Source of the DNA: Candidatus Berkelbacteria bacterium CG10_big_fil_rev_8_21_14_0_10_43_13
Lineage (GTDB): Bacteria > Patescibacteriota > UBA1384 > XYA2-FULL-43-10 > 1-14-0-10-43-13
Length of the DNA: 64,000 nt
Assembly (NCBI GenBank): GCA_002773985.1
Contig: PEZW01000018.1
Span: forward strand, 34,240-98,239
Direction: 5' to 3'
Shown here piece by piece: positions 10,646-55,293 of this stretch (position 1 is the first letter of the stretch; each line of letters begins with the position of its first letter). Under the pieces are notes generated by a model. That model searched no databases. It was not told the origin of the DNA and was given only the letters and a program-made list of their open reading frames with translations. The translations under genes and the position numbers were made by a program.

Positions 10646-11839
10646 ATGCCGGATCAGGGGATACTAGAATATATCCGTGCCGAGAAGGCGCGTGGTGTCG
10701 ATGCTGAGACAACAAGAAACGAACTCTTGAAAGCCGGCTGGAAGGTCAGTGATATTGAGGTCGCTTTTCGTGCTATGACACCGGAGCCGACCGTAGAGAG
10801 TCACCCGACTGCCGTGACGGCTACTGATTTTTCGAAACTTACCGAACACAAACCATCACCAACAACGATCGCCTTGCAATCAGTTCCGAAATTCAAGTCG
10901 AAGAGATTGATCTTCGAGCTGTTTGCCGTGATCCTGATAGTTCTAGCCGGCGGGGGAATCACTTATGGATATTATTATCACCTCTCACCTTATCTGGTAC
11001 TGAACAAAAGTATGGGCAAGTTATCTGAAGTCAAGACCTTTGAATATTCTCTCACAATCTCAAACACTGACACATCAAACAAATATGACAACTTCACTCT
11101 ACAGTCCAGAGGCGTCGAAGATATCACTGATTTGAATAACACCAAAAGCTCGATCACTCTGAGTGGCACTTCGGCCGATGATAGCACCTTTACCAATCCG
11201 ATCGGATTTCAAATTGATTACCGCAACATTAGCCACAATATTTACGCCAAAGTAGACAAACTTGATGGACTCGAAGACCTGGCTGCGCCCATCTTCGATA
11301 AATGGATTAAGTTTGATTTAACTCCGATCAAGGAGCAATATGATCTCGACAAAGTTGACGAGCCAGTAGCTGGCAGTAAGGATGCATCCAAGATTTCGTC
11401 TGATCAGAAAGATAAATTGTATAAAGCGCTGAAGGCCGATAAAGTCTTTGACTTTTCAGAAAGATTGCTCAATGAAAAAGTAAATGGTGTCGATGCAACT
11501 CACTATCAAATCACTCTGAACAAAGAAGGTTTTCTAGAATTTTACACCGACGCCGCAAAAATTCTGTTTGACAGAGAGTTTACAAACAATGATATCAAAT
11601 CTATGAGGCAAGATTTACGAGTAATTAATTCCGCCGACATAGAGATTTGGATCGGCAAGAATGACTCACTGCCATATAAAATAGTCGGATCATCGCAAAT
11701 CGTCGATCCCAAGACATCTAAAATCACCGGCAGCTCGACCCTGACGCTGAATTTCAAGAATTTCAACAAATCGGTCACTGTCGCAACTCCTACCGATACA
11801 ATTTCGTTCGAAGAAGCCTTCGGCCTTCTCTTCAAGTAA
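10646..11839 (+). CDS. Hypothetical membrane-anchored protein (one TM helix near residue 95)
   Basis: Long ORF preceded by a TTGATT-16-TATAAT promoter-like sequence and a GGAGGG RBS. No recognisable catalytic motif. Confidence 0.5.
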   Translation: MPDQGILEYIRAEKARGVDAETTRNELLKAGWKVSDIEVAFRAMTPEPTVESHPTAVTATDFSKLTEHKPSPTTIALQSVPKFKSKRLIFELFAVILIVLAGGGITYGYYYHLSPYLVLNKSMGKLSEVKTFEYSLTISNTDTSNKYDNFTLQSRGVEDITDLNNTKSSITLSGTSADDSTFTNPIGFQIDYRNISHNIYAKVDKLDGLEDLAAPIFDKWIKFDLTPIKEQYDLDKVDEPVAGSKDASKISSDQKDKLYKALKADKVFDFSERLLNEKVNGVDATHYQITLNKEGFLEFYTDAAKILFDREFTNNDIKSMRQDLRVINSADIEIWIGKNDSLPYKIVGSSQIVDPKTSKITGSSTLTLNFKNFNKSVTVATPTDTISFEEAFGLLFK

Positions 11840-11884
11840 GATCTATTGTTGCCACAAAACGTCTTGTTGTGATAACATTAATCT

Positions 11885-13183
11885 ATGATTACCGAACATA
11901 AACCGAACTCTCATCAACCATTGGCTGAGAAATTGCGACCACAAACGCTGGATGATTTTGTTGGTCAGGAACACATCCTCGGTGAGGGGAAGATATTGCG
12001 GCGAATCATCGAGTCGGATCGAATTATCCCGATGATTTTTTGGGGACCACCCGGCTGTGGCAAGACTACATTAGCGAAAATTATTTCCAACAAAACTGAT
12101 TCTAGTTTTGTCTTCTTCTCCGCTGTCACCAGCGGCGTTGCTGATGCCAGAAAATTGATCGCCACCGCGCACGAGGAATTGGAAAATAAAAATCACCGCA
12201 CTATTTTATTTGTCGATGAAATTCATCGTTTTAGCAAATCACAGCAAGACCTGTTTTTGCCTTATGTCGAATCAGGCACTATTATTCTGATCGGGGCAAC
12301 AACAGAAAATCCCTCTTTTCAGGTCAACGCACCACTGCTATCCCGTGCTCGGGTTTTTCATTTTCGCGAAGTGACGATCGACGAAATTATTAAATTAGTA
12401 AAGTCGGTGATTAAAAGGATCAACGCTAAGCCGTCAGAATATTTCCCGACTTTATTTGGTGATTATAAAATAAAAATATCGATTACTGAAGATGCACTTC
12501 AAACTATCGCCAAACTTTGTGACGGTGATGTCAGAGACGCATATAACACTCTCGAGCTAGCAATTATTTCCGCTCCTTATTCTTCGAGTGAATCGAGAAG
12601 TAACAGAAGTAGTTCTCGACTAAGCTCGAACGATAAAATAAATATTGATCAAAAACTGGCCGAGGAATCGATCCAGCAGAAATTTATCCGTTACGACAAG
12701 GGAGCCGATCAACACTTCGATGCGATTTCTGCACTTCATAAATCAATCCGTGCCTCACAACCCGATGCCGCTCTACACTACTTGGCCCGTATGCTTGAAG
12801 CCGGTGAAGATCCACTTTATATTGTCAGACGACTTGTCCGACTCTCAGCCGAAGATATTGGTCTAGCTGACCCACAAGCACTAATTTTAGCTACTTCGAC
12901 GCAACAAGCAGTCCATTTTCTCGGCATGCCGGAATGCAATGATGTCATCGCTGAATTAGTCATTTATCTAGCAAAAGCCAAAAAATCCCGCGCAGTCGAT
13001 GACGCCTATAGTGCGGCAAAAAATGATGTTATAAATGCTCGACTTGACCCGATCCCACTCAAAATTCGCAATGCGCCGACAAAAATGATGAAGGATTTTG
13101 GCTTCGGCAAAGACTATAAAATGTACGACCAAGGGTCGCATCTGCCGGAGAATTTGAAAGATAAGAAATATTGGAAAGAATAG
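11885..13183 (+). CDS. rarA: Replication-associated recombination protein A (AAA+ ATPase RarA/MgsA)
   Basis: Walker A (FWGPPGCGKTTLA), Walker B (FVDEIHRF), and a C-terminal MgsA helical domain. It has a Ser-rich low-complexity insertion (SSSESRSNRSSSRLSS). Confidence 0.9.
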   Translation: MITEHKPNSHQPLAEKLRPQTLDDFVGQEHILGEGKILRRIIESDRIIPMIFWGPPGCGKTTLAKIISNKTDSSFVFFSAVTSGVADARKLIATAHEELENKNHRTILFVDEIHRFSKSQQDLFLPYVESGTIILIGATTENPSFQVNAPLLSRARVFHFREVTIDEIIKLVKSVIKRINAKPSEYFPTLFGDYKIKISITEDALQTIAKLCDGDVRDAYNTLELAIISAPYSSSESRSNRSSSRLSSNDKINIDQKLAEESIQQKFIRYDKGADQHFDAISALHKSIRASQPDAALHYLARMLEAGEDPLYIVRRLVRLSAEDIGLADPQALILATSTQQAVHFLGMPECNDVIAELVIYLAKAKKSRAVDDAYSAAKNDVINARLDPIPLKIRNAPTKMMKDFGFGKDYKMYDQGSHLPENLKDKKYWKE

Positions 13184-13233: not shown

Positions 13234-14469
13234 TTATTCGTATCGCAGAGCGTCAAGAGGATTGATTTTAGCGGCGCGATGAGACGGGTAGATTCCGGTC
13301 AGATAGCCAATGAAAACTGAGAGGACAATAATCGTCAGCAAAAACCAGTTGGGGATATAAAACATGTTTATTGCCTCGCCGCCGAAAGATTGGGCGACTT
13401 GGGCAAAAACAACATTGACACTGAACATTGCAATATAACCAAGTATTACACCCGAAGCACCACCAACAAAACCGACTGCGACCGCTTCAAACATAAACAT
13501 CTGCTTAATCGCGCGATCAGTCGCACCGATAGCTTTCATCACGCCAATCTCCCGAGTGCGCTCGAGCAGCGCAATGGTCATCGTGTTGAACATACCGATT
13601 GAAGCGATGAAGAGCGCTATCAATCCAATGACGGCAAAAACTATCTGTGAGATGTGAAAAATTTTGTTCATCTGATCAAGCGTATCGATCAGGGCCGTCA
13701 CCGCAAAACCAAGTGCCGATATTTTATCCTTGAGTACTTGGACCGATTCAGCGTTCATGGCCTTAACTTTGAGCTCGAAATATTGAGAAAAATCAATCAA
13801 GTCAAAATTTTTCAGTGGGACGAACACATAGTTGCTCTCATCTTCGATGACACCGACCACCGTAAACTTGTCCGGAAGTTGGAAAACATCAGTTGTTTCC
13901 GCTGCTGTATTTGGCACAAATAAGTCAATGCCGATTTCCTGATTTAGTGCGACTTTAGAAGTATTGAAATTTAGTAATTTTGCGGTGGAACTGCTAATAA
14001 TTATTTTTTTCGCATCTTCTGGCTCATCGGAGAAAGTTGTGCCGTAGGTCATCGTTTTACCGGCCAAACGAAAGTATGAATTTTTCACACCAAAAAGTGC
14101 GCCCTGAGTTTTGATATCAGTCCCAGATAATTGAGCTGAGAGTGATTTGACTGGGCTGACCTCAGCCACTTCTGGCATAGATTTGATCTTGGAAATGGCG
14201 TCATCATTGATGGGGATAATGTTTGAAATATCGCCATTTGCCAAAACATCCAAGGTAACCAAAGACTCAGCATTTGCCACTTTATCAACAACGATTTTTT
14301 GCAATCCAAAAGTAAGACCAACGAGAAAAAGTACGGCGGCAATACCGATACCGATTCCGAAAACGGTTAGCACTGTCCGCATTTTCTTATTGCGGATTCT
14401 CTGGTAATTGATATTTAAAATGTCGCGAAAGCGAATGTCTGTTTTGAAGATATGCTTTTTCAATTTCAT
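13234..14469 (-). CDS. ABC transporter permease, FtsX/MacB-like
   Basis: N-terminal TM helix, a large periplasmic domain, and a C-terminal FtsX 3-TM bundle. Overlaps the upstream ATPase gene by 4 nt. Confidence 0.8.
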   Translation of the reverse strand: MKLKKHIFKTDIRFRDILNINYQRIRNKKMRTVLTVFGIGIGIAAVLFLVGLTFGLQKIVVDKVANAESLVTLDVLANGDISNIIPINDDAISKIKSMPEVAEVSPVKSLSAQLSGTDIKTQGALFGVKNSYFRLAGKTMTYGTTFSDEPEDAKKIIISSSTAKLLNFNTSKVALNQEIGIDLFVPNTAAETTDVFQLPDKFTVVGVIEDESNYVFVPLKNFDLIDFSQYFELKVKAMNAESVQVLKDKISALGFAVTALIDTLDQMNKIFHISQIVFAVIGLIALFIASIGMFNTMTIALLERTREIGVMKAIGATDRAIKQMFMFEAVAVGFVGGASGVILGYIAMFSVNVVFAQVAQSFGGEAINMFYIPNWFLLTIIVLSVFIGYLTGIYPSHRAAKINPLDALRYE

Positions 14470-15503
14470 AGAACCTCCAATAAAGCCTCAATGTTGTCAG
14501 CAATATGGTGAGCAGTATTTGAATAAAGCCCAGCACCACCATCTTTAGTTGGTAAATCGAGATTTTTTCGCAACGCACTAATAGTGATTTTTTTGTCGAT
14601 AGCCGCCTCAATAAGTATGGCAGTTCGCTCAATCTCAGTCTCAGCAAAACCATCAAGCTGGGTTTTCGACAAAATAATTTTCATTAACTTTATTATTTTT
14701 TCTTCTCTCTTGCTATGCTTTTGCTCGACATAAGTAGTCCAGGAGTTTTTCTTTGCTGGTCGCGATGCCTCGCGATGGTGATGAACGGTTTGTTTAATCA
14801 CTTTACCATCCAAAACGTGAATGACCCTATCCGCGTAGTGGAGCTGTTCTGGGTTATGGGTAACTACTATCATCGTCGTGCCGATGTCGTCGTTTAACCT
14901 TGCAAAAAGATCCATAACCTCTGTGGCTGAGGCCGAATCAAGATTGCCCGTTGGCTCATCAGCAATGATAATTGGAGGCTGACAGATCAGAGCTCGCATA
15001 ACTCCGACACGCTGTTGTTGGCCACCAGAAACTTCTGCTGGCAGTCGATCAGCCAGGGCCGACAAATTGAAATCGTTCAACATCTTCGAGACAATCTCAC
15101 GACGTTTTGCTGGTAGTATTTTAGAAAAAACCAGTGGCAAAGAAATATTATCAAAAATATTTAAAGATGGAATGAGGTCATAAGCCTGAAAAACCATTCC
15201 TACTTTTTCACGATGAAAAATTGCCTTCTCTTCCTTGTTCATCTTGTTTATATCGACACCGTCGATTACAACCTTGCCGCCATCAGGAACCTCTAGGCCG
15301 GCTAATATGTTTAACAAAGTAGATTTTCCAGACCCAGACGGTCCGAAAAGGAAAACAATCTCTCCAGGAAAAACCTCAAAACTGACTCCGGCGAGCGCCT
15401 TGACTCGGGATTGTTCCGATCCAAAAAACTTCTCAAGTTTTTCGACGATGATCACCGGCTTTTTTTTCTCTATTGTTTCTCTTATCATAAGTTTTTTGTC
15501 CAA
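14466..15503 (-). CDS. ABC transporter ATP-binding protein (MacB/LolD-like) with a C-terminal extension
   Basis: Walker A (GPSGSGKST), ABC signature (VSGGQQQRV), Walker B ([11 protein letters not shown]). Confidence 0.9.
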   Translation of the reverse strand: MDKKLMIRETIEKKKPVIIVEKLEKFFGSEQSRVKALAGVSFEVFPGEIVFLFGPSGSGKSTLLNILAGLEVPDGGKVVIDGVDINKMNKEEKAIFHREKVGMVFQAYDLIPSLNIFDNISLPLVFSKILPAKRREIVSKMLNDFNLSALADRLPAEVSGGQQQRVGVMRALICQPPIIIADEPTGNLDSASATEVMDLFARLNDDIGTTMIVVTHNPEQLHYADRVIHVLDGKVIKQTVHHHREASRPAKKNSWTTYVEQKHSKREEKIIKLMKIILSKTQLDGFAETEIERTAILIEAAIDKKITISALRKNLDLPTKDGGAGLYSNTAHHIADNIEALLEVL

Positions 15504-29245: not shown

Positions 29246-29288
29246 GCCGAAGTGCCTGCCTGCCGGCAGGCAGGGCGGAATTGGTATA
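29246..29288 (+). pseudogene. 5' part of a second tRNA-Leu(CAA)-like gene (acceptor plus D arm), interrupted by a 20-bp perfect palindrome (29255-29274)
   Basis: With the palindrome removed, the sequence is GCCGAAGTGGCGGAATTGGTATA, against GCCGCGGTGGCGGAATTGGTATA in the intact tRNA-Leu (21/23 identical). Confidence 0.5.
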
Positions 29289-29299
29289 ACCTATTATAT

Positions 29300-29539
29300 A
29301 TGTATTTTGTCTATGTATTAAAAAGTACAAAAAGGAATTATCATTATATTGGTATTAGCAATAATTTATCTCGAAGAATAAATCAACACAACAAGGGTTA
29401 CAACAAAACAACTAAGCCTTACACACCTTTTAAATTAATTTACAGTGAAAAGTACCCTGACCGTGTCTCAGCCAGAACTAGAGAAAAACAATTAAAAAGT
29501 GGTTGCGGTCGTGAATTTATTCGAAAAATAGATATTTAA
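29300..29539 (+). CDS. GIY-YIG nuclease-domain protein (about 80 aa, UPF0213/Slx1-like)
   Basis: MYFVYVLKSTKRNYHYIGISNNLSRRINQHN matches the GIY-(10-11)-YIG motif plus the conserved Arg and Asn. The ORF-track upstream extension (from 29252) runs through the palindrome and is unlikely to be coding. Confidence 0.7.
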   Translation: MYFVYVLKSTKRNYHYIGISNNLSRRINQHNKGYNKTTKPYTPFKLIYSEKYPDRVSARTREKQLKSGCGREFIRKIDI

Positions 29540-29569
29540 ATAATTTGATTAGCGTCTTGTTCATTTTGG

Positions 29570-29655
29570 GCCGCGGTGGCGGAATTGGTATACGCGTACG
29601 ACTCAAAATCGTATTCCCTCAAGGAATGTGGGTTCGATTCCCACCCGCGGCACCA
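29570..29655 (+). tRNA. tRNA-Leu (anticodon CAA), long variable arm, CCA encoded
   Basis: Hand fold: acceptor GCCGCGG/CCGCGGC, anticodon stem TACGA/TCGTA with loop CUCAAAA, variable hairpin TTCC-CTCA-AGGAA, T arm GTGGG-TTCGATT-CCCAC. Confidence 0.9.
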
Positions 29656-29670
29656 AATGAATAAGAATCG

Positions 29671-29769
29671 CACGACCTGTCTGCCGACAGGCAGGCTCAA
29701 AATCGTGTGGCCTCGTGCCTTATGGGTCTGCCTGTCGGTAGACAGGTTCAAATCCCACCTTCGGTACCA
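29671..29769 (+). pseudogene. 3' part of the split tRNA-Leu(CAA)-like gene (anticodon arm, variable arm, T arm, acceptor 3', CCA), carrying two 20-bp palindrome insertions (29676-29695 and 29727-29746)
   Basis: With the palindromes removed, the sequence is CACGA-CTCAAAA-TCGTG ... TGGG-TTCAAAT-CCCA-CCTTCGGT-A-CCA. The acceptor 3' strand CTTCGGT is complementary to the 5' fragment GCCGAAG, including compensatory changes relative to the intact gene. Confidence 0.5.
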
Positions 29770-29770
29770 A

Positions 29771-29800
29771 AAAAAACAGCTTAATTGCTGTTTTTTATTT
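29771..29800 (+). terminator. Intrinsic terminator (AACAGC-ttaatt-GCTGTT followed by a T-run)
   Basis: Hairpin 29775-29792 followed by TTTTTTATTT. Confidence 0.6.
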
Positions 29801-29864
29801 ATCCAATTTTGTTGATGGGCGGAAGGTTTCTGGCACACGGCCCGAAACCTTCCGCCCCGACACT

Positions 29865-30230
29865 TCAGGGCGACTCCTTGTCGCCCTGCAACTTCTTTGT
29901 CTCCTTCGAGGCCTGTTGTTCCGCGACGATCTTCATTCGCGGGCTATCCTTCACAGCCTCAGCCTCCGCAGCCTGTTGCTCAGCAACGATCCGCATCCGC
30001 AGACTATCGCTGAGATCAGCCGCATTACTCTCCTCACCGGCACGTTGTTCGGCGACGACCTCCGCCGCCGACATGTTCGGCTCCGGATCGGGCCGAACCG
30101 ACTCGCTTGGCTGCACCGCCACAGACTGTGCAGGTTTGTAGCCGTAGTCGTCGACTTTGTGGCAACCGACGAGAATTGAAAACCCGAGGGATGCCACCAC
30201 AATTGCCAACACATCGGAAAACTCTTCCAC
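29865..30230 (-). CDS. Putative lipoprotein with internal repeats, GC-rich
   Basis: Signal peptide with lipobox (SILVGC) and a tandem R/K-M-R/K-IVAEQQA motif. The GC content is clearly above the local background. Confidence 0.5.
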   Translation of the reverse strand: MEEFSDVLAIVVASLGFSILVGCHKVDDYGYKPAQSVAVQPSESVRPDPEPNMSAAEVVAEQRAGEESNAADLSDSLRMRIVAEQQAAEAEAVKDSPRMKIVAEQQASKETKKLQGDKESP

Positions 30231-30296
30231 TGTATGACTCCCTTTCCCTTGACATGTTTATAACATTTTTGACTGTGTGTGTCAACATTTTTGGGA

Positions 30297-30490
30297 GTAA
30301 CTGCTCACCCATCTTTTCATTTCGACCCCGTGAGCTCTGTCGAACGGTCGGAGAAATCTGACACGAAGTGTCATTCCCTCGGCTAGCTCGGGACAGGCTC
30401 TGAGCTTGTCGAAGGATCTTTTCAAGAAACAAGATCTCTCCACCCTCGACGAACCGAGGAGTCGAGATGACAATATGAAGTGAGTTAGTA
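30297..30490. repeat. MITE-like palindromic element (GTAACTGCTCA terminal repeats, GTCATTCC subterminal)
   Basis: Begins GTAACTGCTCACCC and ends GTGAGTTAGTAATTAC. It shares its termini and the GTCATTCCCTCGGC core with the copies at 42539, 48641 and 50041. Confidence 0.4.
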
Positions 30491-30633
30491 ATTACTTTTC
30501 TCTGAGAACACAAAAAAAACCGGCATCCGAATGGACAACCGATTACATTATTTTCTTTTTAATTTTGCTGTGTCGGCGAGGGTCCCCCGAAGGGTACCCC
30601 CGCCGACGAGCTTTCATCACGACGCCACTCCTG

Positions 30634-31089
30634 TTATTTCTCCGCCGCCACGGGGCGGAGAGAGGCGGCCATCTCCTTGGCCGCTTCCTCCGCTGTCGGG
30701 ACCCTCTGCACCAGAGGTGACGAAGGGTCGACCGCCGAATCAACCGGCAACAGCAAGCTGTCACCGGAGGACAGCTGGCCGTTGCTCGACGACCGCCTGT
30801 TAATGCGGTCGAGCTCAGCCTCCCAGTGCCGCTTGTCAGCGCCTTTCGGCGCAAACAAAGTGGCGATCGAGTGATACGTGTCGCCGTCCTGGACGGCGTA
30901 GTACCATCGCGTCGGCTCAGCAACAGCGGCACGGACCGCTACCGCACGCCGATTGCCATCATCGACGGCGCGGGTGATGAACGCCGCCGCGATGGCAACG
31001 ATCACGATCACTAGTACCAGCCACGCCGCAACCTCTTTCAAGGTCATCGGCTCGGCCGGTCGATCAAACGCTTTCACGTTTTTGCCCAT
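30634..31089 (-). CDS. LysM-domain membrane protein (start probably MGKNVK; the ORF track extends to 31164), GC-rich
   Basis: TM helix (WLVLVIVIVAIAAAFI) followed by a LysM-like block YYAVQDGDTYHSIATLF...GQLSSGDSLLLP. Confidence 0.55.
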   Translation of the reverse strand: MGKNVKAFDRPAEPMTLKEVAAWLVLVIVIVAIAAAFITRAVDDGNRRAVAVRAAVAEPTRWYYAVQDGDTYHSIATLFAPKGADKRHWEAELDRINRRSSSNGQLSSGDSLLLPVDSAVDPSSPLVQRVPTAEEAAKEMAASLRPVAAEK

Positions 31090-31386
31090 CTTCAGGGCTC
31101 CTTTTTCGGGCAGGATTGGCAGAATTGCCAAAATTATACTAACAGATTTGATAGTATTTGTCAATATATAAGCACAAAATTATGTTCAATTTAGTATTTT
31201 GTCAGACCCAAACTGTATAAACACCGGAATTCGCGCCATTTTCTAGTCGAAAGCTTTAGTCTTTTAGCCATCTTTTCAGCTTTATCTCAGCCAATATGGT
31301 ATAATATCAACGTAGATCCAAGTTCACAGTACCGAGTACCGAGCGCCCCCTAATACGTTATACGAGATACCTAATACGAAATTTGT

Positions 31387-31464
31387 ATGAGATTGCTTGT
31401 TATTGAAGACGATCACCAGCCTACGCCAAGGCTACGGCCGGCAGGACGAGGTTTGAGATATTAA
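31387..31464 (+). pseudogene. Duplicated 5' end of the response-regulator gene (MRLLVIEDDH then frameshifted junk and a stop)
   Basis: atgagattgcttgttattgaagacgatcacc at 31387-31417 against atgagattattggttatagaagatgatcaca at 31488-31518. The encoded peptide is identical. Confidence 0.35.
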
Positions 31465-31487
31465 ACTAGAATGCGAGATTTTAACAT

Positions 31488-32171
31488 ATGAGATTATTGG
31501 TTATAGAAGATGATCACAAAATTGCCAATGCAATTAAAAAAGGCTTAAATCAGGAGTCCTATGCTGTCGATGTTTCTTTTGACGGCAAGGACGGCTTGGC
31601 GACCGCTCTGACGATTGATTATGATTTAATTATTATCGACCGAATGTTACCCGGAGTTGACGGCATCAAGGTCTGCCAGGCTTTGCGTGACAAGAAATAT
31701 AACACGCCAATTCTCTTTCTGACCGCCAAAGATAAAATTTCTGACCGTGTCGAAGGTCTCAATGCTGGCGCTGATGATTATCTGATCAAGCCCTTTGCCT
31801 TCGAGGAATTATTGGCCCGCGTCCGCGCTCTTCTGCGACGGCCGAGCAAAACAGACGATACAGTGCTTCAAATTGCTGATCTGACGCTTGATCCGGCTCG
31901 TTTCGTCGTCAAGCGCAAAAACAAAGACATCAAACTCTCGAGCAAAGAGTTTGCACTACTGGAATACATAATGCGCAATCCTGATCGGATCTTGACCAAG
32001 GACAACATCATCGCCCATGTCTGGGATTACGACGCCGACATTTTGCCCAACACTGTCGAAGTTTACATTGGATATTTGCGTAATAAAATCGATCGACCAT
32101 TTCCCAAAGAACCCAACCTTATCCAGACAAGCAGGGGATTTGGCTACAAAATCACCGAGGCACCAGAATAA
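31488..32171 (+). CDS. OmpR-family response regulator
   Basis: Receiver domain (DD...D phospho-acceptor context, K) and a winged-helix trans_reg_C domain. Confidence 0.9.
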   Translation: MRLLVIEDDHKIANAIKKGLNQESYAVDVSFDGKDGLATALTIDYDLIIIDRMLPGVDGIKVCQALRDKKYNTPILFLTAKDKISDRVEGLNAGADDYLIKPFAFEELLARVRALLRRPSKTDDTVLQIADLTLDPARFVVKRKNKDIKLSSKEFALLEYIMRNPDRILTKDNIIAHVWDYDADILPNTVEVYIGYLRNKIDRPFPKEPNLIQTSRGFGYKITEAPE

Positions 32172-32295: not shown

Positions 32296-33342
32296 TTGGC
32301 AACTATCATGAAGCTCCATAAGTCTCCCTATCTTCGTCTGACCCTATTTTACGTCCTGATCGTCATGACGATCAGCATGCTTTTTAGTTTTGTTATCTTC
32401 AATTTATCATCAAAAGAGCTCGACTCTGGACTTGGTCGACAATCACGTGTTATCTGGAATATAGGGCAAAACAACGGAATGATGACACCGTTTTCCGACA
32501 TTGACCAGATCCGCCAAAACCAGCTCAGTGAATCCGAGGATAATTTGCGCGACAATCTGATTTATTGGAATTTAATTATCCTGATATTGTCATCATTCTT
32601 GAGTTATTTTCTCGCCAAAAGCTCGATGCGACCGATCGAAGACGCACTTTACTCTCAAAACTGTTTTACCGCCGATGCTTCTCACGAGCTTCGTACTCCC
32701 TTGACTGCGATGAAGACCGAAGTTGAAGTAGCCTTGCGTGATAAAGATATCCATTTAGATGACGCCAAAAAGTTATTACAAAGTAACCTCGAAGAGATTG
32801 GCAAACTCGAATCTCTCTCAAATGCACTTCTCAAAGTTGCCCGAAGCCGAGAAGCAGCAAAAGCAAGTTTTACAAAAATTGCAATATCAAATATTGTCCT
32901 CGAAGCTTACGAAAAGATAGAAAGTCTGGCAAAGAAAAAATCGATTCACTTCACCTTCAAGGGTCAAGCAAAAGATCTTTTTGTCCACGGTGACACCCCA
33001 AGTCTCAACGAACTTTTTGTTATTCTTTTTGATAACGCGATCAAGTACTCAGATGAAAAATCAAAAGTTGATATTTATCTCTCCGCTGACAAGAAGCACG
33101 CAGTCGTGTCGGTAAAAGATCATGGTGTCGGCATCAAAGCAGGTGATGTACCGTATATTTTTAACCGTTTTTATCGTGCGGACAACTCACGTGTCAGAAA
33201 TGTCCCCGGTGGCTACGGTCTTGGGTTATCAATCGCCAGAAACATCGCTGAGATGCATGACGGGATCATCACGATCGAAAGTCAGCCCGGTCACGGCAGT
33301 GAGTTCAGAGTGACTTTTCCACTTTTACACTTGCCAAAATAG
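32296..33342 (+). CDS. Sensor histidine kinase (2 TM, HisKA plus HATPase_c)
   Basis: H-box ASHELRTPLTAM, N-box, G1 box DHGVGI, G2 box GGYGLGLSIA. Confidence 0.9.
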   Translation: MATIMKLHKSPYLRLTLFYVLIVMTISMLFSFVIFNLSSKELDSGLGRQSRVIWNIGQNNGMMTPFSDIDQIRQNQLSESEDNLRDNLIYWNLIILILSSFLSYFLAKSSMRPIEDALYSQNCFTADASHELRTPLTAMKTEVEVALRDKDIHLDDAKKLLQSNLEEIGKLESLSNALLKVARSREAAKASFTKIAISNIVLEAYEKIESLAKKKSIHFTFKGQAKDLFVHGDTPSLNELFVILFDNAIKYSDEKSKVDIYLSADKKHAVVSVKDHGVGIKAGDVPYIFNRFYRADNSRVRNVPGGYGLGLSIARNIAEMHDGIITIESQPGHGSEFRVTFPLLHLPK

Positions 33343-42538: not shown

Positions 42539-42779
42539 TATTGCAAACTGTAACTGCTCACTCGGCTGTCATTCCCGCCCCGTATCAGAGTACGGGATAA
42601 ACTCCGGCGGGTCATCGATTCTGAGGGATGAGCCCTCAGGCTCAGACTCGAATGAGAATCCAGGTGGCACAATCGCAACCGAACTTCCTGGATCCCCGGG
42701 CTTCACTCCCTCGCCCCGCCTAAGTCTCAAGGCGGGGCAAGTCACACCGCTGAAACCGAGGATGACAGAAAGGATGGAT
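42539..42779. repeat. MITE-like element (about 240 bp) with 11-bp perfect terminal inverted repeats GTAACTGCTCA/TGAGCAGTTAC and internal hairpins
   Basis: The terminal repeats are read directly. The interior shares GTCATTCCCGCC...GGATGACAG with the copies at 34150, 48641 and 50041. Confidence 0.55.
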
Positions 42780-42865
42780 GAGCAGTTACTGCAAATTGTC
42801 TTGTAACTTTACATTTATTACAATACAATAATAGCAAATAGTATAGAAAAAATAAATGAGGTTTT

Positions 42866-48567: not shown

Positions 48568-48640
48568 TTTTTAGGCTACTTTGAGTTAAAGTATAATCAA
48601 TGTTAGTGGTCCTTCGGACCACTTCTTTTTTTCAGAAATG

Positions 48641-48776
48641 TAACTGCTCATTTGCAGTGTCATTCCCGCGCAGGCGGGAATCCAGGCAGCACAAACTTTT
48701 TATGGATCCCCGGGCACCACTCTCGAGAACACCGCTGGTCCCGAGGATGACAATGATAGGGTGAGTGAGTAGTTAC
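48641..48776. repeat. MITE-like element (TGTAACTGCTCA ... GAGTAGTTACA, with GTCATTCCCGCGCAGGCGGGAATCC hairpin)
   Basis: Same termini and core hairpin as the copy at 50041. Confidence 0.5.
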
Positions 48777-52853: not shown

Positions 52854-53288
52854 CTAGCCGTCACCATCAAGACTCTGAAGCAGTTCCCCGAGACCGCTGA
52901 TGAGGGTATTGTCCATCAGCCGAGCGGAGCTTGCCATGTAACTAATGTCAACCAGCCCCCCTGACAGCTTGGCCAATGTGGTCGCGGAAACTCTCATGAC
53001 CTCGGGGTCGTCTGTCGTCTTGATCTTGGCCGACAGTACCTCAACGACCGATTCCAGGGCGTACTTCAACACCCTGAGATCATCCTGCGTCTGCACCCTT
53101 GTGAAGAAGGCGCCGAGGTTGGCGCCATCATGAAGCTCGAGTAGCCTCAAGATCTCATTCGCCAGACTGGTGATCGTCATGGCGGCTGGCGATGCCTCAG
53201 GAATGAGATCCCCGAAGTACACAGCGAGCTTGCCCTCGTCCAGCGGATCGCTCTCGTCACCAAATCGGTCCGAACCTGTGTCACTCAT
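52854..53288 (-). CDS. Hypothetical acidic protein encoded in a GC-rich segment (start taken at MSDTGS)
   Basis: ORF with visibly higher GC than its neighbours. A palindromic GAGTACTCAGTAC...GTACTGAGTACT site lies upstream (53365-53410), and a CGGGACG/CGTCCCG hairpin lies downstream. Confidence 0.4.
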   Translation of the reverse strand: MSDTGSDRFGDESDPLDEGKLAVYFGDLIPEASPAAMTITSLANEILRLLELHDGANLGAFFTRVQTQDDLRVLKYALESVVEVLSAKIKTTDDPEVMRVSATTLAKLSGGLVDISYMASSARLMDNTLISGLGELLQSLDGDG

Positions 53289-53496
53289 CTCGACTCCCTT
53301 TGTCAGTGCGATGGCAAAAGAGTACAATATTAAGACAAATTTTGCAATATTTCTCCTGAGTACTCAGTACTATGCACTGCATACTGCGTACTGAGTACTA
53401 TCTAGATTTGACTTTCACGCTTGAGTCCTGCTAAAATTGGCTCAGTTGAGATCGAATTCTGAATAATATCATTCTTAATTCTGAAAGAGGAACTCT

Positions 53497-54840: not shown

Positions 54841-55293
54841 ATGAACTTATCCCTTGTTCTCGACAATATCCGCTCGATGCAAAACGTCGGTTCGATTTTT
54901 CGAACCGCCGACGCTGCTGGAGTTAGTAAGATTTATCTCTGTGGCTTCACGCCCAAACCACCGCGCAAGGAGATCGACAAAGCGGCTCTCGGCGCCGTTG
55001 ATTTTGTCGAGTGGGAATACCAAGACAATTTAAAAAATTTAATTTTCAATTTAAAAACAAAAGGGATTAAAATCATTGCCCTCGAACAGCATGAAAACTC
55101 AACCCCTTATACGTCATACGTTATACCTAATACGAATACTCTCGCTCTCATCGTCGGTAACGAAGTCGACGGCATCTCCAAAGAAATTTTGGAACTATGC
55201 GACGACATTATCGAAATCCCGATGCACGGCCAGAAGAATTCTCTAAATGTTGCCGTCGCCACAGGCATCGTGTTATTCGAATTAATAAAATAA
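54841..55293 (+). CDS. SpoU/TrmH-family RNA 2'-O-methyltransferase (SPOUT)
   Basis: SPOUT motifs NVGSIFRTADAAGV, LIVGNEVDGIS, and the knot region NSLNVAVATGIVLFE. Confidence 0.8.
   Translation: MNLSLVLDNIRSMQNVGSIFRTADAAGVSKIYLCGFTPKPPRKEIDKAALGAVDFVEWEYQDNLKNLIFNLKTKGIKIIALEQHENSTPYTSYVIPNTNTLALIVGNEVDGISKEILELCDDIIEIPMHGQKNSLNVAVATGIVLFELIK

Follow-up and report, generated by a model that had tools for sequence, protein, structure and literature searches.

A GC-rich two-gene islet beside tRNA-Leu in Berkelbacteria: a candidate resident and fast-diversifying envelope module

In textbook terms, atypical base composition beside a tRNA gene marks a recently acquired genomic island; tRNA-linked islands insert at the 3' end of a tRNA gene by means of an integrase. 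Replacement-type variable surface loci hold hypervariable alleles between conserved flanks, exchange them by homologous recombination and are usually AT-rich, and the vls locus of Borrelia is a GC-rich antigenic-variation locus for a surface protein in an AT-rich genome. Proteins of the YneA type measure about 100-165 aa, are under SOS/LexA control, are typically encoded divergently from lexA and inhibit septal peptidoglycan synthesis via FtsW; ChiZ (Rv2719c) of M. tuberculosis is a similar SOS cell-division inhibitor with a single transmembrane (TM) helix and a LysM domain. In YneA of Bacillus subtilis itself, a single TM helix precedes the extracellular LysM domain (PMC13396833).

The locus described here lies in a 64,000-nt stretch of a Candidatus Berkelbacteria genome (the whole analysed stretch is called the window) and is the strongest compositional outlier of that stretch. 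Its GC-rich core, delimited as the maximal-scoring GC segment, covers ~1.25 kb (29817-31062) with a GC content of 0.57 vs ~0.42 elsewhere, and consists of two GC-rich blocks with a MITE copy in between. In 300-nt windows the GC content is 0.53-0.64 from 29700 to 31050 and ~0.42 outside. The compositional deviation that the first-pass annotation had placed at 29800-31170 was confirmed by the sliding-window and tetranucleotide calculations, as the 1371-nt interval reaches a GC content of 0.552, compared with 0.421 +/- 0.029 in all remaining windows of this length (z = 4.5, maximum elsewhere 0.497), and has the largest tetranucleotide distance of the whole stretch. Arg-rich ORFs do appear in several frames of the islet, as had been remarked, and the coding pattern GC1 > GC2 < GC3 is found solely in two minus-strand ORFs, the same two that had been picked out as plausible genes. 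Their proteins are rich in Ala, Arg, Gly and Pro, with few Lys, Ile and Asn. An assembly chimera or artefact was ruled out, since 1961 nt (29560-31520) are identical or differ by one base in five independent assemblies. With a probability of roughly 55%, the islet is no recent import but a resident envelope module at the level of the clade, which diversifies rapidly and whose GC content is actively maintained, probably via RNA structure. The features of the locus are collected in Table 1.

Table 1. Features of the GC-rich islet and its surroundings (positions in the window)
Feature	Position	Strand	Remarks
tRNA-Leu(CAA), intact	29570-29655	+	Inside a split older tRNA-Leu
GC-rich stem-loop after repeat-protein gene	29817-29857	-	Inverted repeat, 18 nt, 94% complementary
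Repeat-protein gene	29865-30230	-	121 aa; GTG start; coding GC1/2/3 pattern; repeats
Repeat-protein promoter, sigma-70-like	30257-30285	-	TTGACA, 17 nt, TATAAA; read from the sequence
MITE copy	30297-30490	+	Terminal inverted repeats GTAACTGCTCA...GTAATTAC; in the spacer between the islet genes
Stem-loop after LysM gene	30572-30607	-	Inverted repeat; C(UUCG)G loop in the sense transcript
LysM gene	30634-31089	-	151-aa bitopic membrane protein; coding GC1/2/3 pattern
Palindrome TTGGCAGAATTGCCAA	31116-31131		Just downstream of the LysM promoter; candidate operator
LysM-gene promoter	31136-31164	-	TTGACA, 17 nt, TG-TAGTAT; 10/12 matches, TG extension
OmpR-family response regulator	31488-32171	+	Divergent from the LysM gene
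Histidine kinase	32308-33342		Downstream of the response regulator

The LysM gene (GC1/2/3 of 0.65/0.49/0.76) has an AAGGAG ribosome-binding site (RBS) 7 nt upstream of its ATG, and its product features a short N-terminus (MGKNVKAFDR...), one TM helix at about residues 20-38, an extended LysM domain at residues 63-116 and a C-terminal tail. A single-sequence AF2 model contains a helix at residues 17-56 with a pLDDT of up to 92, the pLDDT over the LysM domain being ~50. The Pfam LysM model (PF01476) gave no match to the 151-aa protein even at E <= 10, and the orthologue from the related lineage L005 matched it over the full model length at E = 0.061 (13.7 bits, cut-off 20.9). When a profile of four orthologues was compared by hhalign with verified LysM repeats, namely 13 repeats taken from proteins scored as LysM by Pfam and from the solved structure 4uz2, residues 63-116 aligned with 98.6% probability (E = 1.2e-15). 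Profile matches in the PDB were the solved LysM structures 4uz2 at 0.001 and 1e0g at 0.01, and an exhaustive phmmer search of 1.84 billion representatives returned only LysM-repeat proteins, the best at 5e-13 and none above 41% identity. At the level of sequence comparison the LysM domain is confirmed, and the TM-plus-LysM architecture proposed in the first pass stands despite the silence of Pfam. The stretch carrying the promoter and TTGGCAGAATTGCCAA hardly differs between the window and L005/L006, with the adjoining coding region unalignable. The GC-rich stem-loop, 26 nt past the stop codon, forms 18 pairs that are nearly invariant in three lineages, and this hairpin is the sole part of the islet interior that can still be aligned as DNA (91% over 56 nt with L005, 89% with L009).

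The repeat-protein gene (GC1/2/3 of 0.68/0.41/0.68) has its RBS, GGGAAAGGGAG, at 30239-30249 after the promoter, and the same TTGACA-N17-TATAAA arrangement precedes the gene in L009; this promoter was missing from the promoter scan because the scan rule demands a -10 hexamer that ends in T. The stem-loop ~8 nt past the stop codon is kept in L009, where a compensatory change has turned an A-T pair into G-C. Another hairpin (29866-29888) extends over the stop codon and the final codons before it. The product had been described as a lipoprotein with tandem repeats, and the repeats are confirmed: two and a half Ala/Glu/Gln-rich repeats of 20 aa, DSxRM(R/K)IVAEQQA..., are encoded by 60-nt units, those at 29903-29948 and 29963-30008 being 76% identical and the third copy degenerate; they went unreported by TRF run with default-like settings. 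The hydrophobic N-terminus ends in a lipobox-like L-V-G-C (Cys23), which agrees with [LVI][ASTVI][GAS]C and follows a 13-residue hydrophobic stretch, and a Pro-rich stretch is present. However, the case for a lipoprotein or lipid-anchored protein in this lineage is weak, because the n-region is acidic (MEEFSD) where a lipoprotein would carry a positively charged one and L005 lacks the Cys. The lipobox is not universal in the family, reading A-V-G-C in L009 (orthologue at 10982-11416, 61% aa identity), while the L005 orthologue (14103-14486, 38% aa identity) has Phe instead of Cys and a single repeat.

In related Berkelbacteria the same GC-rich genes recur in the same orientation, again located between tRNA-Leu and this two-component system. 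The pair lies directly upstream of the orthologous response regulator in L005/L006 (Sua5 84% identical at the aa level) and directly after tRNA-Leu in L009-L011 (Sua5 63%), and the LysM gene is present in L015 (Sua5 57%), so that LysM orthologues are available from L005/L006, L009/L011 and L015. In these relatives the pair has a GC content of 0.60-0.69 and a GC3 of 0.71-0.81 in genomes of 0.43-0.46 GC; over all lineages, the window included, the GC3 of islet genes is ~0.68-0.81 and the genomic GC 0.42-0.46. The arrangement of response regulator and histidine kinase is shared with L005/L006 and with L016 (Sua5 50%), where a non-homologous small membrane-protein gene with a GC content of 0.60 stands upstream of the same response regulator. 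An MFS transporter gene separates the tRNA from the pair in L005, L012 and L017, and the islet adjoins the tRNA here because this gene is absent. The comparison of synteny, which had been proposed as a check on acquisition, goes against the inference of horizontal acquisition from position and composition: gene pair, order and strand are conserved. The context is not strictly identical owing to the MFS gene. No relative with an otherwise intact locus lacked the pair among those recovered, and in the sample examined the pair is restricted to one clade; sampling is thin, with only three to four effectively independent lineages.

The word-indexed protein search returned self matches only for both islet proteins, but it missed the orthologues located by synteny and is unreliable, so the orphan-like appearance of the pair was not sustained. 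A Sua5-based search of genome and metagenome contigs yielded only distant matches of 30-38% identity. Nothing significant was found for either protein in Pfam, NCBIfam, PHROGs or PADLOC, and the only Rfam match was the tRNA. Neither a search of phage DNA nor a search of viral contigs with both protein profiles and the conserved hairpin gave a match, hence there is no sign of phage origin. Separately, L005 contains a third GC-rich segment (11601-11978) with no convincing ORF and no match to the profiles of the pair or to Rfam.

Divergence of the islet proteins outpaces that of their neighbours by a factor of 5-30. In the comparison of the window with L005, flanking genes show dS of 0.86-1.62 and dN of 0.03-0.11, whereas dN is 0.50 and 0.85 for the two islet genes; with L009, dS of the flanks reaches 2 or more. 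Across the lineages, synonymous sites in the flanks are near saturation or fully saturated. The flanks are 77-84% identical to L005 as DNA, nothing aligns inside the islet save the 56-nt hairpin, and homology returns within the LysM gene, ~15 nt from its 5' end. Such a layout is what recurrent cassette replacement would leave, in which the pair or its single genes are swapped among Berkelbacteria or re-imported from an unsampled GC-rich reservoir (phage, plasmid or host) by recombination in the conserved flanks (tRNA-Leu with its terminator, hairpin and promoter), the GC content mirroring that of the reservoir. The repeat-protein gene fits this model, being nearer to L009 than to L005 while Sua5 and PGM show the opposite. 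Together with the left junction (tRNA 3' end, terminator and GC hairpin) it is 76% identical to L009, where the flanking genes reach 68-73%; its dS is 0.72, with a dN/dS of ~0.4, against 2 or more for the flanks, and its identity at fourfold sites is 0.62 against 0.37-0.45, a comparison that comprises 37 sites only. These values point to allele exchange, and the 250-nt tract that has recombined within the population in the neighbouring histidine kinase and the insertion scars at tRNA-Leu are in keeping with replacement. On the other hand, the phmmer search retrieved generic LysM proteins and no GC-rich donor, the viral contigs matched neither profile nor hairpin, swaps among AT-rich Berkelbacteria alone would not hold the GC content high, and the LysM alleles, equidistant at ~30% aa identity among three lineages, are uninformative. 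Replacement as the full account of the islet is considered rather unlikely.

A single ancient transfer into the common ancestor, after which GC-richness was never ameliorated and no force maintained it, is improbable. GC1, GC2 and amino-acid usage do resemble those of a GC-rich genome, and the limitation of the pair to one clade in the sample suits such an origin. Nevertheless, with flank dS of ~0.9-1.6 for the closest pair and saturation for the others, a rough two-state decay calculation leaves less than half of the initial GC3 excess on the shortest branch and would require an ancestral GC3 above 1. GC3 is equally high in all lineages without a gradient with divergence, and a slower mutation rate at the locus is disfavoured by the high dN. 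As estimated from dS, the synonymous turnover of the flanks excludes a passive relic for a GC3 excess of ~0.3. Since GC3 has not decayed to the genomic value, we infer that the composition of the islet is actively maintained; an acquisition predating the split of these lineages is possible.

The base pairing of the islet genes suggests what may maintain it. The folding energies of all eight islet genes compared, relative to synonymous-codon shuffles, have z-scores from -2.66 to -6.46, with none of 40 shuffles reaching the native energy. In the controls, 44 other genes of the window averaged -0.29 (sd 0.97; a single gene, at -3.1, was at or below -2.66), and 15 segments of native GC-rich genes from L003 averaged -0.44 with a minimum of -2.41. 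When UTRs and hairpins were included, the z-scores against dinucleotide shuffles were -5.7 and -9.3. As every islet gene folds far better than its synonymous shuffles, the maintaining agent would most likely be selection that acts on the nucleotide sequence and favours extensively paired transcripts. The excess is present on both strands, however, and may reflect DNA-level palindromes or a mutational process instead of selection on RNA. It is a more speculative step, and a doubtful one, to propose that a dedicated local process keeps the locus GC-rich, hairpin-laden and fast-diversifying across a clade of AT-rich CPR bacteria, either through selection for hyper-structured envelope-gene mRNAs tied to the adjacent two-component system or through hairpin-driven (quasi-palindrome template-switch) GC-biased mutation. 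If true, the islet would represent a compositional micro-domain that is stable and belongs neither to the foreign islands nor to the RNA genes.

In the preferred reading of a resident envelope module, the two genes would be transcribed separately, each from a predicted sigma-70-like promoter with its own RBS and GC-rich 3' stem-loop. The repeat protein is predicted to be small and exported, probably lipid-anchored in this lineage, and the LysM protein to be membrane-anchored with an extracytoplasmic LysM domain that would bind peptidoglycan. By analogy with YneA, the latter would act at the wall-membrane interface, through tethering or modulation of peptidoglycan synthesis. Judged from the conserved divergent adjacency, the pair is probably controlled by, or works with, the neighbouring two-component system. 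Rapid diversification of the exposed parts, with at least one exchange of a repeat allele between lineages, would have given rise to the orphan-like sequences.

Recent integration of the islet beside tRNA-Leu in this genome, as the first-pass annotation had suggested from position and composition, was not supported and is highly improbable. The atypical GC, GC3 and tetranucleotide composition and the empty word-indexed search would fit a newcomer, as would the tRNA, a demonstrable insertion hot spot: pieces of the older split tRNA-Leu lie at 29246-29288 and 29668-29769, and scars of repeated insertion mark the locus. Against it, the pair occupies the same locus in diverged relatives, no repeat of the tRNA 3' end was found on the far (right) side of the islet, and no integrase Pfam family occurs among the neighbours within ~10 kb, the islet consisting of two genes only. 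Att-like duplications of the tRNA 3' end do exist in L009 and L006, but between tRNA and islet and not around the islet. The promoters are AT-rich, host-like and conserved with L005, the five assemblies show it to be fixed in the population and without variation, and a native MITE has already inserted into the islet. The MITE between the genes had been correctly recognized, with its start exact, and two further copies lie in the window (42550-42789 and 48640-48776). All three measure 137-240 bp and are bounded by GTAACTGCTCA / TGAGCAGTTAC, as expected of a short non-coding multicopy element with terminal inverted repeats; GTAACTGCTCA occurs five times in the 64-kb window where 0.76 occurrences are expected, and the 3' terminal repeat of the islet copy is degenerate. 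The islet MITE is carried by all assemblies of this population and is missing in L005 and L009, where the spacers measure 175 and 165 bp.

It is scarcely credible that neither ORF is genuine and that the islet is instead a structured, GC-rich element of non-coding RNA or DNA, for although the folding z-scores are very negative, GC-rich DNA yields long ORFs in all frames and neither protein matches Pfam, the coding pattern is confined to these two frames, lineages with DNA too diverged to align preserve the frames, lengths, TM helix, LysM motif and C-terminal motifs, LysM homology stands at 98.6%, RBS and promoter are in place, and Rfam gives no match. Two further candidates were rejected. The hairpins lack R-box ends on inspection and both genes have promoters of their own, which sets the islet apart from an integron cassette with attC; a diversity-generating retroelement (DGR) or antigenic variation was discarded, since the window contains neither a template nor paralogous repeats and the population does not vary at this locus.

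The locus bears on how composition is read. Automated finders would call an island here, and since this island signature belongs to a conserved resident locus, the islet is a concrete case in which calling horizontal transfer from composition gives a false positive. It also poses the question of what holds two small envelope genes at 60-67% GC, and strongly over-structured, in genomes of 42-46% GC even though synonymous sites have been turned over. For CPR biology, it offers candidates for interaction with the wall, a host or phages in an uncultured lineage: a LysM protein that evolves fast and is probably exposed at the surface, and its partner, both encoded beside a two-component system.

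Among known systems, the islet resembles tRNA-linked islands in its atypical composition, its small cargo genes and its place beside a tRNA with insertion scars, and differs from them in having neither an integrase nor a flanking att duplication (the att-like repeats lie outside it), in its presence in related lineages and in its host-like promoters. With Borrelia vls it shares a locally raised GC content at a surface-protein locus of an otherwise AT-rich genome, but the window contains no silent donor cassettes or paralogous segments and the population shows no variation. The likeness to replacement-type surface loci goes further, comprising conserved flanks around an unalignable interior, predicted exposed envelope proteins, dN far above that of the flanks and one gene whose tree conflicts with the species tree; the differences are the 0-1 changes in five assemblies, the GC-richness and the excess of RNA/DNA structure. 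Different from YneA, the islet LysM protein has a longer C-terminal tail, its gene is GC-rich, hypervariable and paired with a repeat-protein gene, and it adjoins a divergent OmpR-type response regulator and tRNA-Leu instead of lexA; its score with the YneA model of NCBIfam (NF010723) is 12.2 bits against a cut-off of 60 (E = 0.13). Yet YneA is the sole NCBIfam model that touches it. Both are small bitopic proteins with a short N-terminus, one TM helix and a LysM domain, predicted to be extracellular in the 151-aa islet protein and of the same extended subtype, with an insertion and a conserved Trp, and the YneA-like 101-aa protein P0015 aligns with the islet protein from the TM helix through the LysM domain.

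Across 29700-31050 the GC content rises from ~0.42 to 0.53-0.64 in sliding windows. The GC-rich islet proposed in the first-pass annotation was borne out by both compositional checks: the 1371-nt interval has a GC content of 0.552 versus 0.421 +/- 0.029 in other windows of the same size (z = 4.5, next highest 0.497), and its tetranucleotide deviation is the largest within the 64 kb. Many ORFs overlap the islet in different frames and several are Arg-rich, as had been described, and the coding signature GC1 > GC2 < GC3 is found only in the two minus-strand ORFs already named as genes, while GC3 of neighbouring genes is 0.28-0.51. The start of the LysM gene is most likely the ATG at 31089, because AAGGAG lies 7 nt upstream, whereas the upstream TTG at 31164 is located in AT-rich DNA. 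An assembly artefact is excluded, since 29560-31520 is identical or differs by one base in five independent assemblies (JGI and ENA samples). A weaker second GC-rich patch between the Clp ATPase gene and hisS carries a 157-aa orphan ORF without Pfam or PADLOC match.

Coordinates of the islet and of surrounding features
Feature	Position	Strand	Particulars
Maximal-scoring GC segment of the window	29817-31062		
Repeat-protein gene	29865-30230	-	GC1/2/3 0.68/0.41/0.68
Direct repeats in the repeat-protein gene	29903-29948, 29963-30008		60 nt (20 aa); weaker third copy
LysM gene	30634-31089	-	GC1/2/3 0.65/0.49/0.76
Palindrome TTGGCAGAATTGCCAA	31116-31131		conserved, at LysM-gene promoter
MITE, islet copy	30297-30490		delimited by GTAACTGCTCA
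MITE, further copies	42550-42789, 48640-48776		delimited by GTAACTGCTCA; internal motifs GTCATTCC...GGATGACA
Split tRNA-Leu(CAA), native type	29246-29288, 29668-29769		broken in D-loop by 379-nt insert
GIY-YIG gene	29300-29539		in the insert
Intact tRNA-Leu(CAA)	29570-29655		in the insert; other allele type
20-nt palindromes, CCTGCCTGCCGGCAGGCAGG type	29255-29274, 29676-29695, 29727-29746		in broken tRNA-Leu
AT-rich 34-nt stretch	31347-31380		upstream of response regulator gene
Repeat of this stretch	55103-55136		88% identical; most AT-rich part of window
First 10 codons of response regulator gene	31487-31517		MRLLVIEDDH
Duplicate of these codons	31386-31416		101 nt upstream; same peptide, synonymous differences
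Variable histidine kinase tract	32748-33000		residues 151-234
Second GC-rich patch	52854-53327	-	GC 0.58

Neither islet protein gave anything significant in Pfam, PHROGs or PADLOC. For the 151-aa product of the LysM gene, an exhaustive phmmer search (1.84 billion representatives) returned multi-LysM proteins only (best 5e-13), with the alignments falling on their LysM repeats. The four-orthologue profile matched the solved LysM domains 4uz2 (0.001) and 1e0g (0.01), and hhalign against 13 verified LysM repeats assigned residues 63-116 with 98.6% probability (E = 1.2e-15). The domain belongs to an extended subtype, and its ~9-residue insertion with a Trp is probably the reason why the Pfam LysM model misses it. 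As the AF2 model contains a confident helix at residues 17-56, the predicted architecture comprises a short N-terminus, one TM helix, the LysM domain and a tail, in agreement with the TM plus LysM protein first suggested. Peptidoglycan binding at the membrane surface would be the expected role of this protein. The 121-aa repeat protein combines a hydrophobic N-terminus terminated by L-V-G-C with a Pro-rich stretch and Ala/Glu/Gln-rich repeats. The tandem repeats noticed earlier are real; the proposed lipoprotein nature of the protein is plausible but weak, given an acidic n-region and one orthologue in which Phe takes the place of the Cys.

By its flanking Sua5 protein the organism is a Candidatus Berkelbacteria from Crystal Geyser. 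Contigs of relatives, gathered via the same protein, cover three to four independent lineages, and most of them stop near the locus. In L005/L006 (Sua5 84% at the amino acid level), tRNA-Leu is followed by a GC-rich ORF-less segment, an MFS transporter gene, minus-strand genes of 127 and 164 aa (GC 0.61 and 0.60, GC3 0.73 and 0.71) and orthologous response regulator and histidine kinase genes. In L009-L011 (63%) a 144-aa lipobox protein and a 142-aa TM protein (GC 0.64 and 0.67) come directly after tRNA-Leu, and in L015 (57%) a LysM-type GC-rich gene (GC 0.69) adjoins it. On sequence criteria these small genes are orthologues of the islet pair. HMMs of these genes recover all copies, and the alignments have ESVRPDPEP, MSAAEVVAEQRA, PRMRIV and GDKESP* in common for the repeat protein, and MGKNV.AFDR, the TM segment and the LysM motif for the LysM protein. 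L016 (50%) bears a non-homologous 179-aa membrane-protein gene (GC 0.60), divergent upstream of the same response regulator gene. The small-gene islet is the top GC-rich segment of every locus. The order Sua5, tRNA-Leu, MFS is also found in the related contigs L012 and L017; no MFS homologue was found in the window, and the absence of this gene at the locus is why the islet pair abuts the tRNA. The ORF-less segment (L005 11601-11978, L006 11370-11750; GC 0.62), lying between tRNA-Leu and the MFS gene of the closest relative, has no counterpart in the window; a convincing ORF, resemblance to the islet pair and an Rfam match are all lacking.

Compared with L005, the window shows 77-84% DNA identity in the flanking genes (dN 0.03-0.11, dS 0.86-1.62), while in the islet interior only a 56-nt hairpin aligns (91%) and the two genes reach dN 0.50 and 0.85 with amino acid identities of 39% and 29%; against L009 the flank dS is saturated. 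GC3 is equally high in the islet genes of all lineages, and under a two-state decay (a rough calculation) less than half of any initial excess would be left even on the shortest branch. With so much synonymous turnover and uniformly high GC3, the excess of ~0.3 cannot, on this estimate, be a passive remnant, so that the composition must be either maintained or repeatedly re-imported.

Computational MFE z-scores against synonymous-codon shuffles point to a large excess of predicted secondary structure in the islet genes. All eight of them, from five lineages and including the non-homologous gene of L016, gave z from -2.66 to -6.46, and 0/40 shuffles reached the native energy. The 44 other genes of the window had a mean z of -0.29 (sd 0.97; 1/44 <= -2.66), 15 segments taken from native GC-rich genes of the unrelated contig L003 a mean of -0.44 (minimum -2.41), and the small gene in the second GC-rich patch an ordinary z of ~-1.2. 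The excess is present on both strands, the sense being slightly stronger in 5/6 genes. The hairpin 3' of the LysM gene, whose loop reads C(UUCG)G in the sense RNA, is nearly invariant across three lineages, and that 3' of the repeat-protein gene contains a compensatory change.

The reading to which we commit is that the islet would be an envelope module conserved in the clade, whose protein parts diversify rapidly while GC-richness is kept at the nucleotide level, most likely via selection that favours base pairing in the transcripts. Its main competitor is a model in which alleles of the islet genes are recurrently exchanged or re-imported: the repeat-protein gene and the left junction are nearer to L009 than to L005 (76% DNA identity), the reverse of the Sua5 tree, with dS of 0.72 versus at least 2 in the flanks and fourfold identity of 0.62 versus 0.37-0.45. 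However, no GC-rich donor was found among the 1.84 billion representatives or the scanned viral contigs, and exchange confined to AT-rich genomes would leave the high GC unmaintained. Local maintenance and exchange are not exclusive.

Horizontal acquisition, previously proposed from the tRNA position and composition, is, as a recent event, essentially refuted by the synteny comparison, as the pair is conserved in relatives, albeit in a context not strictly identical. No integrase lies within ~10 kb, and the right side of the islet lacks any repeat derived from the tRNA. The att-like tRNA 3'-end duplications of L009 and L006 sit between tRNA and islet, making the islet the chromosomal flank for those events. 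The AT-rich promoter and putative operator region of the LysM gene is conserved with L005 until ~15 nt within the coding region. Judged from these comparisons, the islet cannot be classed as a recent tRNA-targeted island. The missing repeats in the window and the invariance within the population rule out ongoing hypervariation of the DGR or cassette-switching kind.

The annotated MITE proved genuine, its terminal motif occurring five times in the window versus 0.76 expected; the interiors of the two further copies are very unlike in length and sequence. Its absence from the islet locus of L005 and L009 indicates a later, lineage-specific insertion.

The tRNA-Leu locus itself is unusual. Removal of the insert and the three palindromes restores an 84-nt tRNA-Leu(CAA) by ARAGORN, 82/86 identical to the intact L009 and L007 genes, while the inserted tRNA is 84/86 identical to that of L012. 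The palindrome type has no other occurrence in the 64 kb, and two tandem copies lie at the homologous 5' site of L006 (10400-10440). Nested tRNA-Leu also occurs at L006 10390-10880, L017 1894-2260 and L018 3574-3979, in the latter two without any ORF and with short inverted repeats on both sides. The nested tRNA looks like a homing-type element targeting the D-loop and bringing a replacement tRNA. The GIY-YIG gene is probably multi-copy or mobile, because several short same-population contigs (region 29252-29542; L026, L027) end at or branch after its end at 29542 and L026 runs on into a different, MotB-like-looking context. Extra tRNA-Leu 3'-end fragments (...TCCCACCTTCGGTAC...) 150-450 nt downstream of the tRNA (L009 10704-10884, L006 10856-11335) flank short AT-rich inserts and resemble att-type scars left by elements, now decayed, that had integrated at the 3' end of the tRNA.

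On the right flank, the duplicated 5' end of the response regulator gene is followed by a 35-nt GC-rich insert (CAGCCTACGCCAAGGCTACGGCCGGCAGGACGAGG); the whole arrangement (31386-31486) is conserved in L005/L006 and looks like an old insertion carrying a replacement 5' end. The second HisKA/DHp helix and linker usually determine partner specificity. The variable kinase tract encodes this region and holds, within ~250 nt, 52/53 differences (19 amino acid changes) from contig L001, which is otherwise identical over 9.7 kb; it is a putative recombinant tract or alternative allele. The divergent arrangement with the OmpR-type pair, conserved in the window, L005 and L016, and the conserved promoter palindrome suggest that the LysM module is regulated by, or cooperates with, this pair.

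Among known systems, YneA shares the TM plus LysM architecture of the 151-aa protein, including the short N-terminus and the tail (PMC13396833). The YneA model, however, scores this protein at 12 bits versus a cut-off of 60, and no lexA lies near the LysM gene; YneA may thus be regarded as an analogue, without family assignment.
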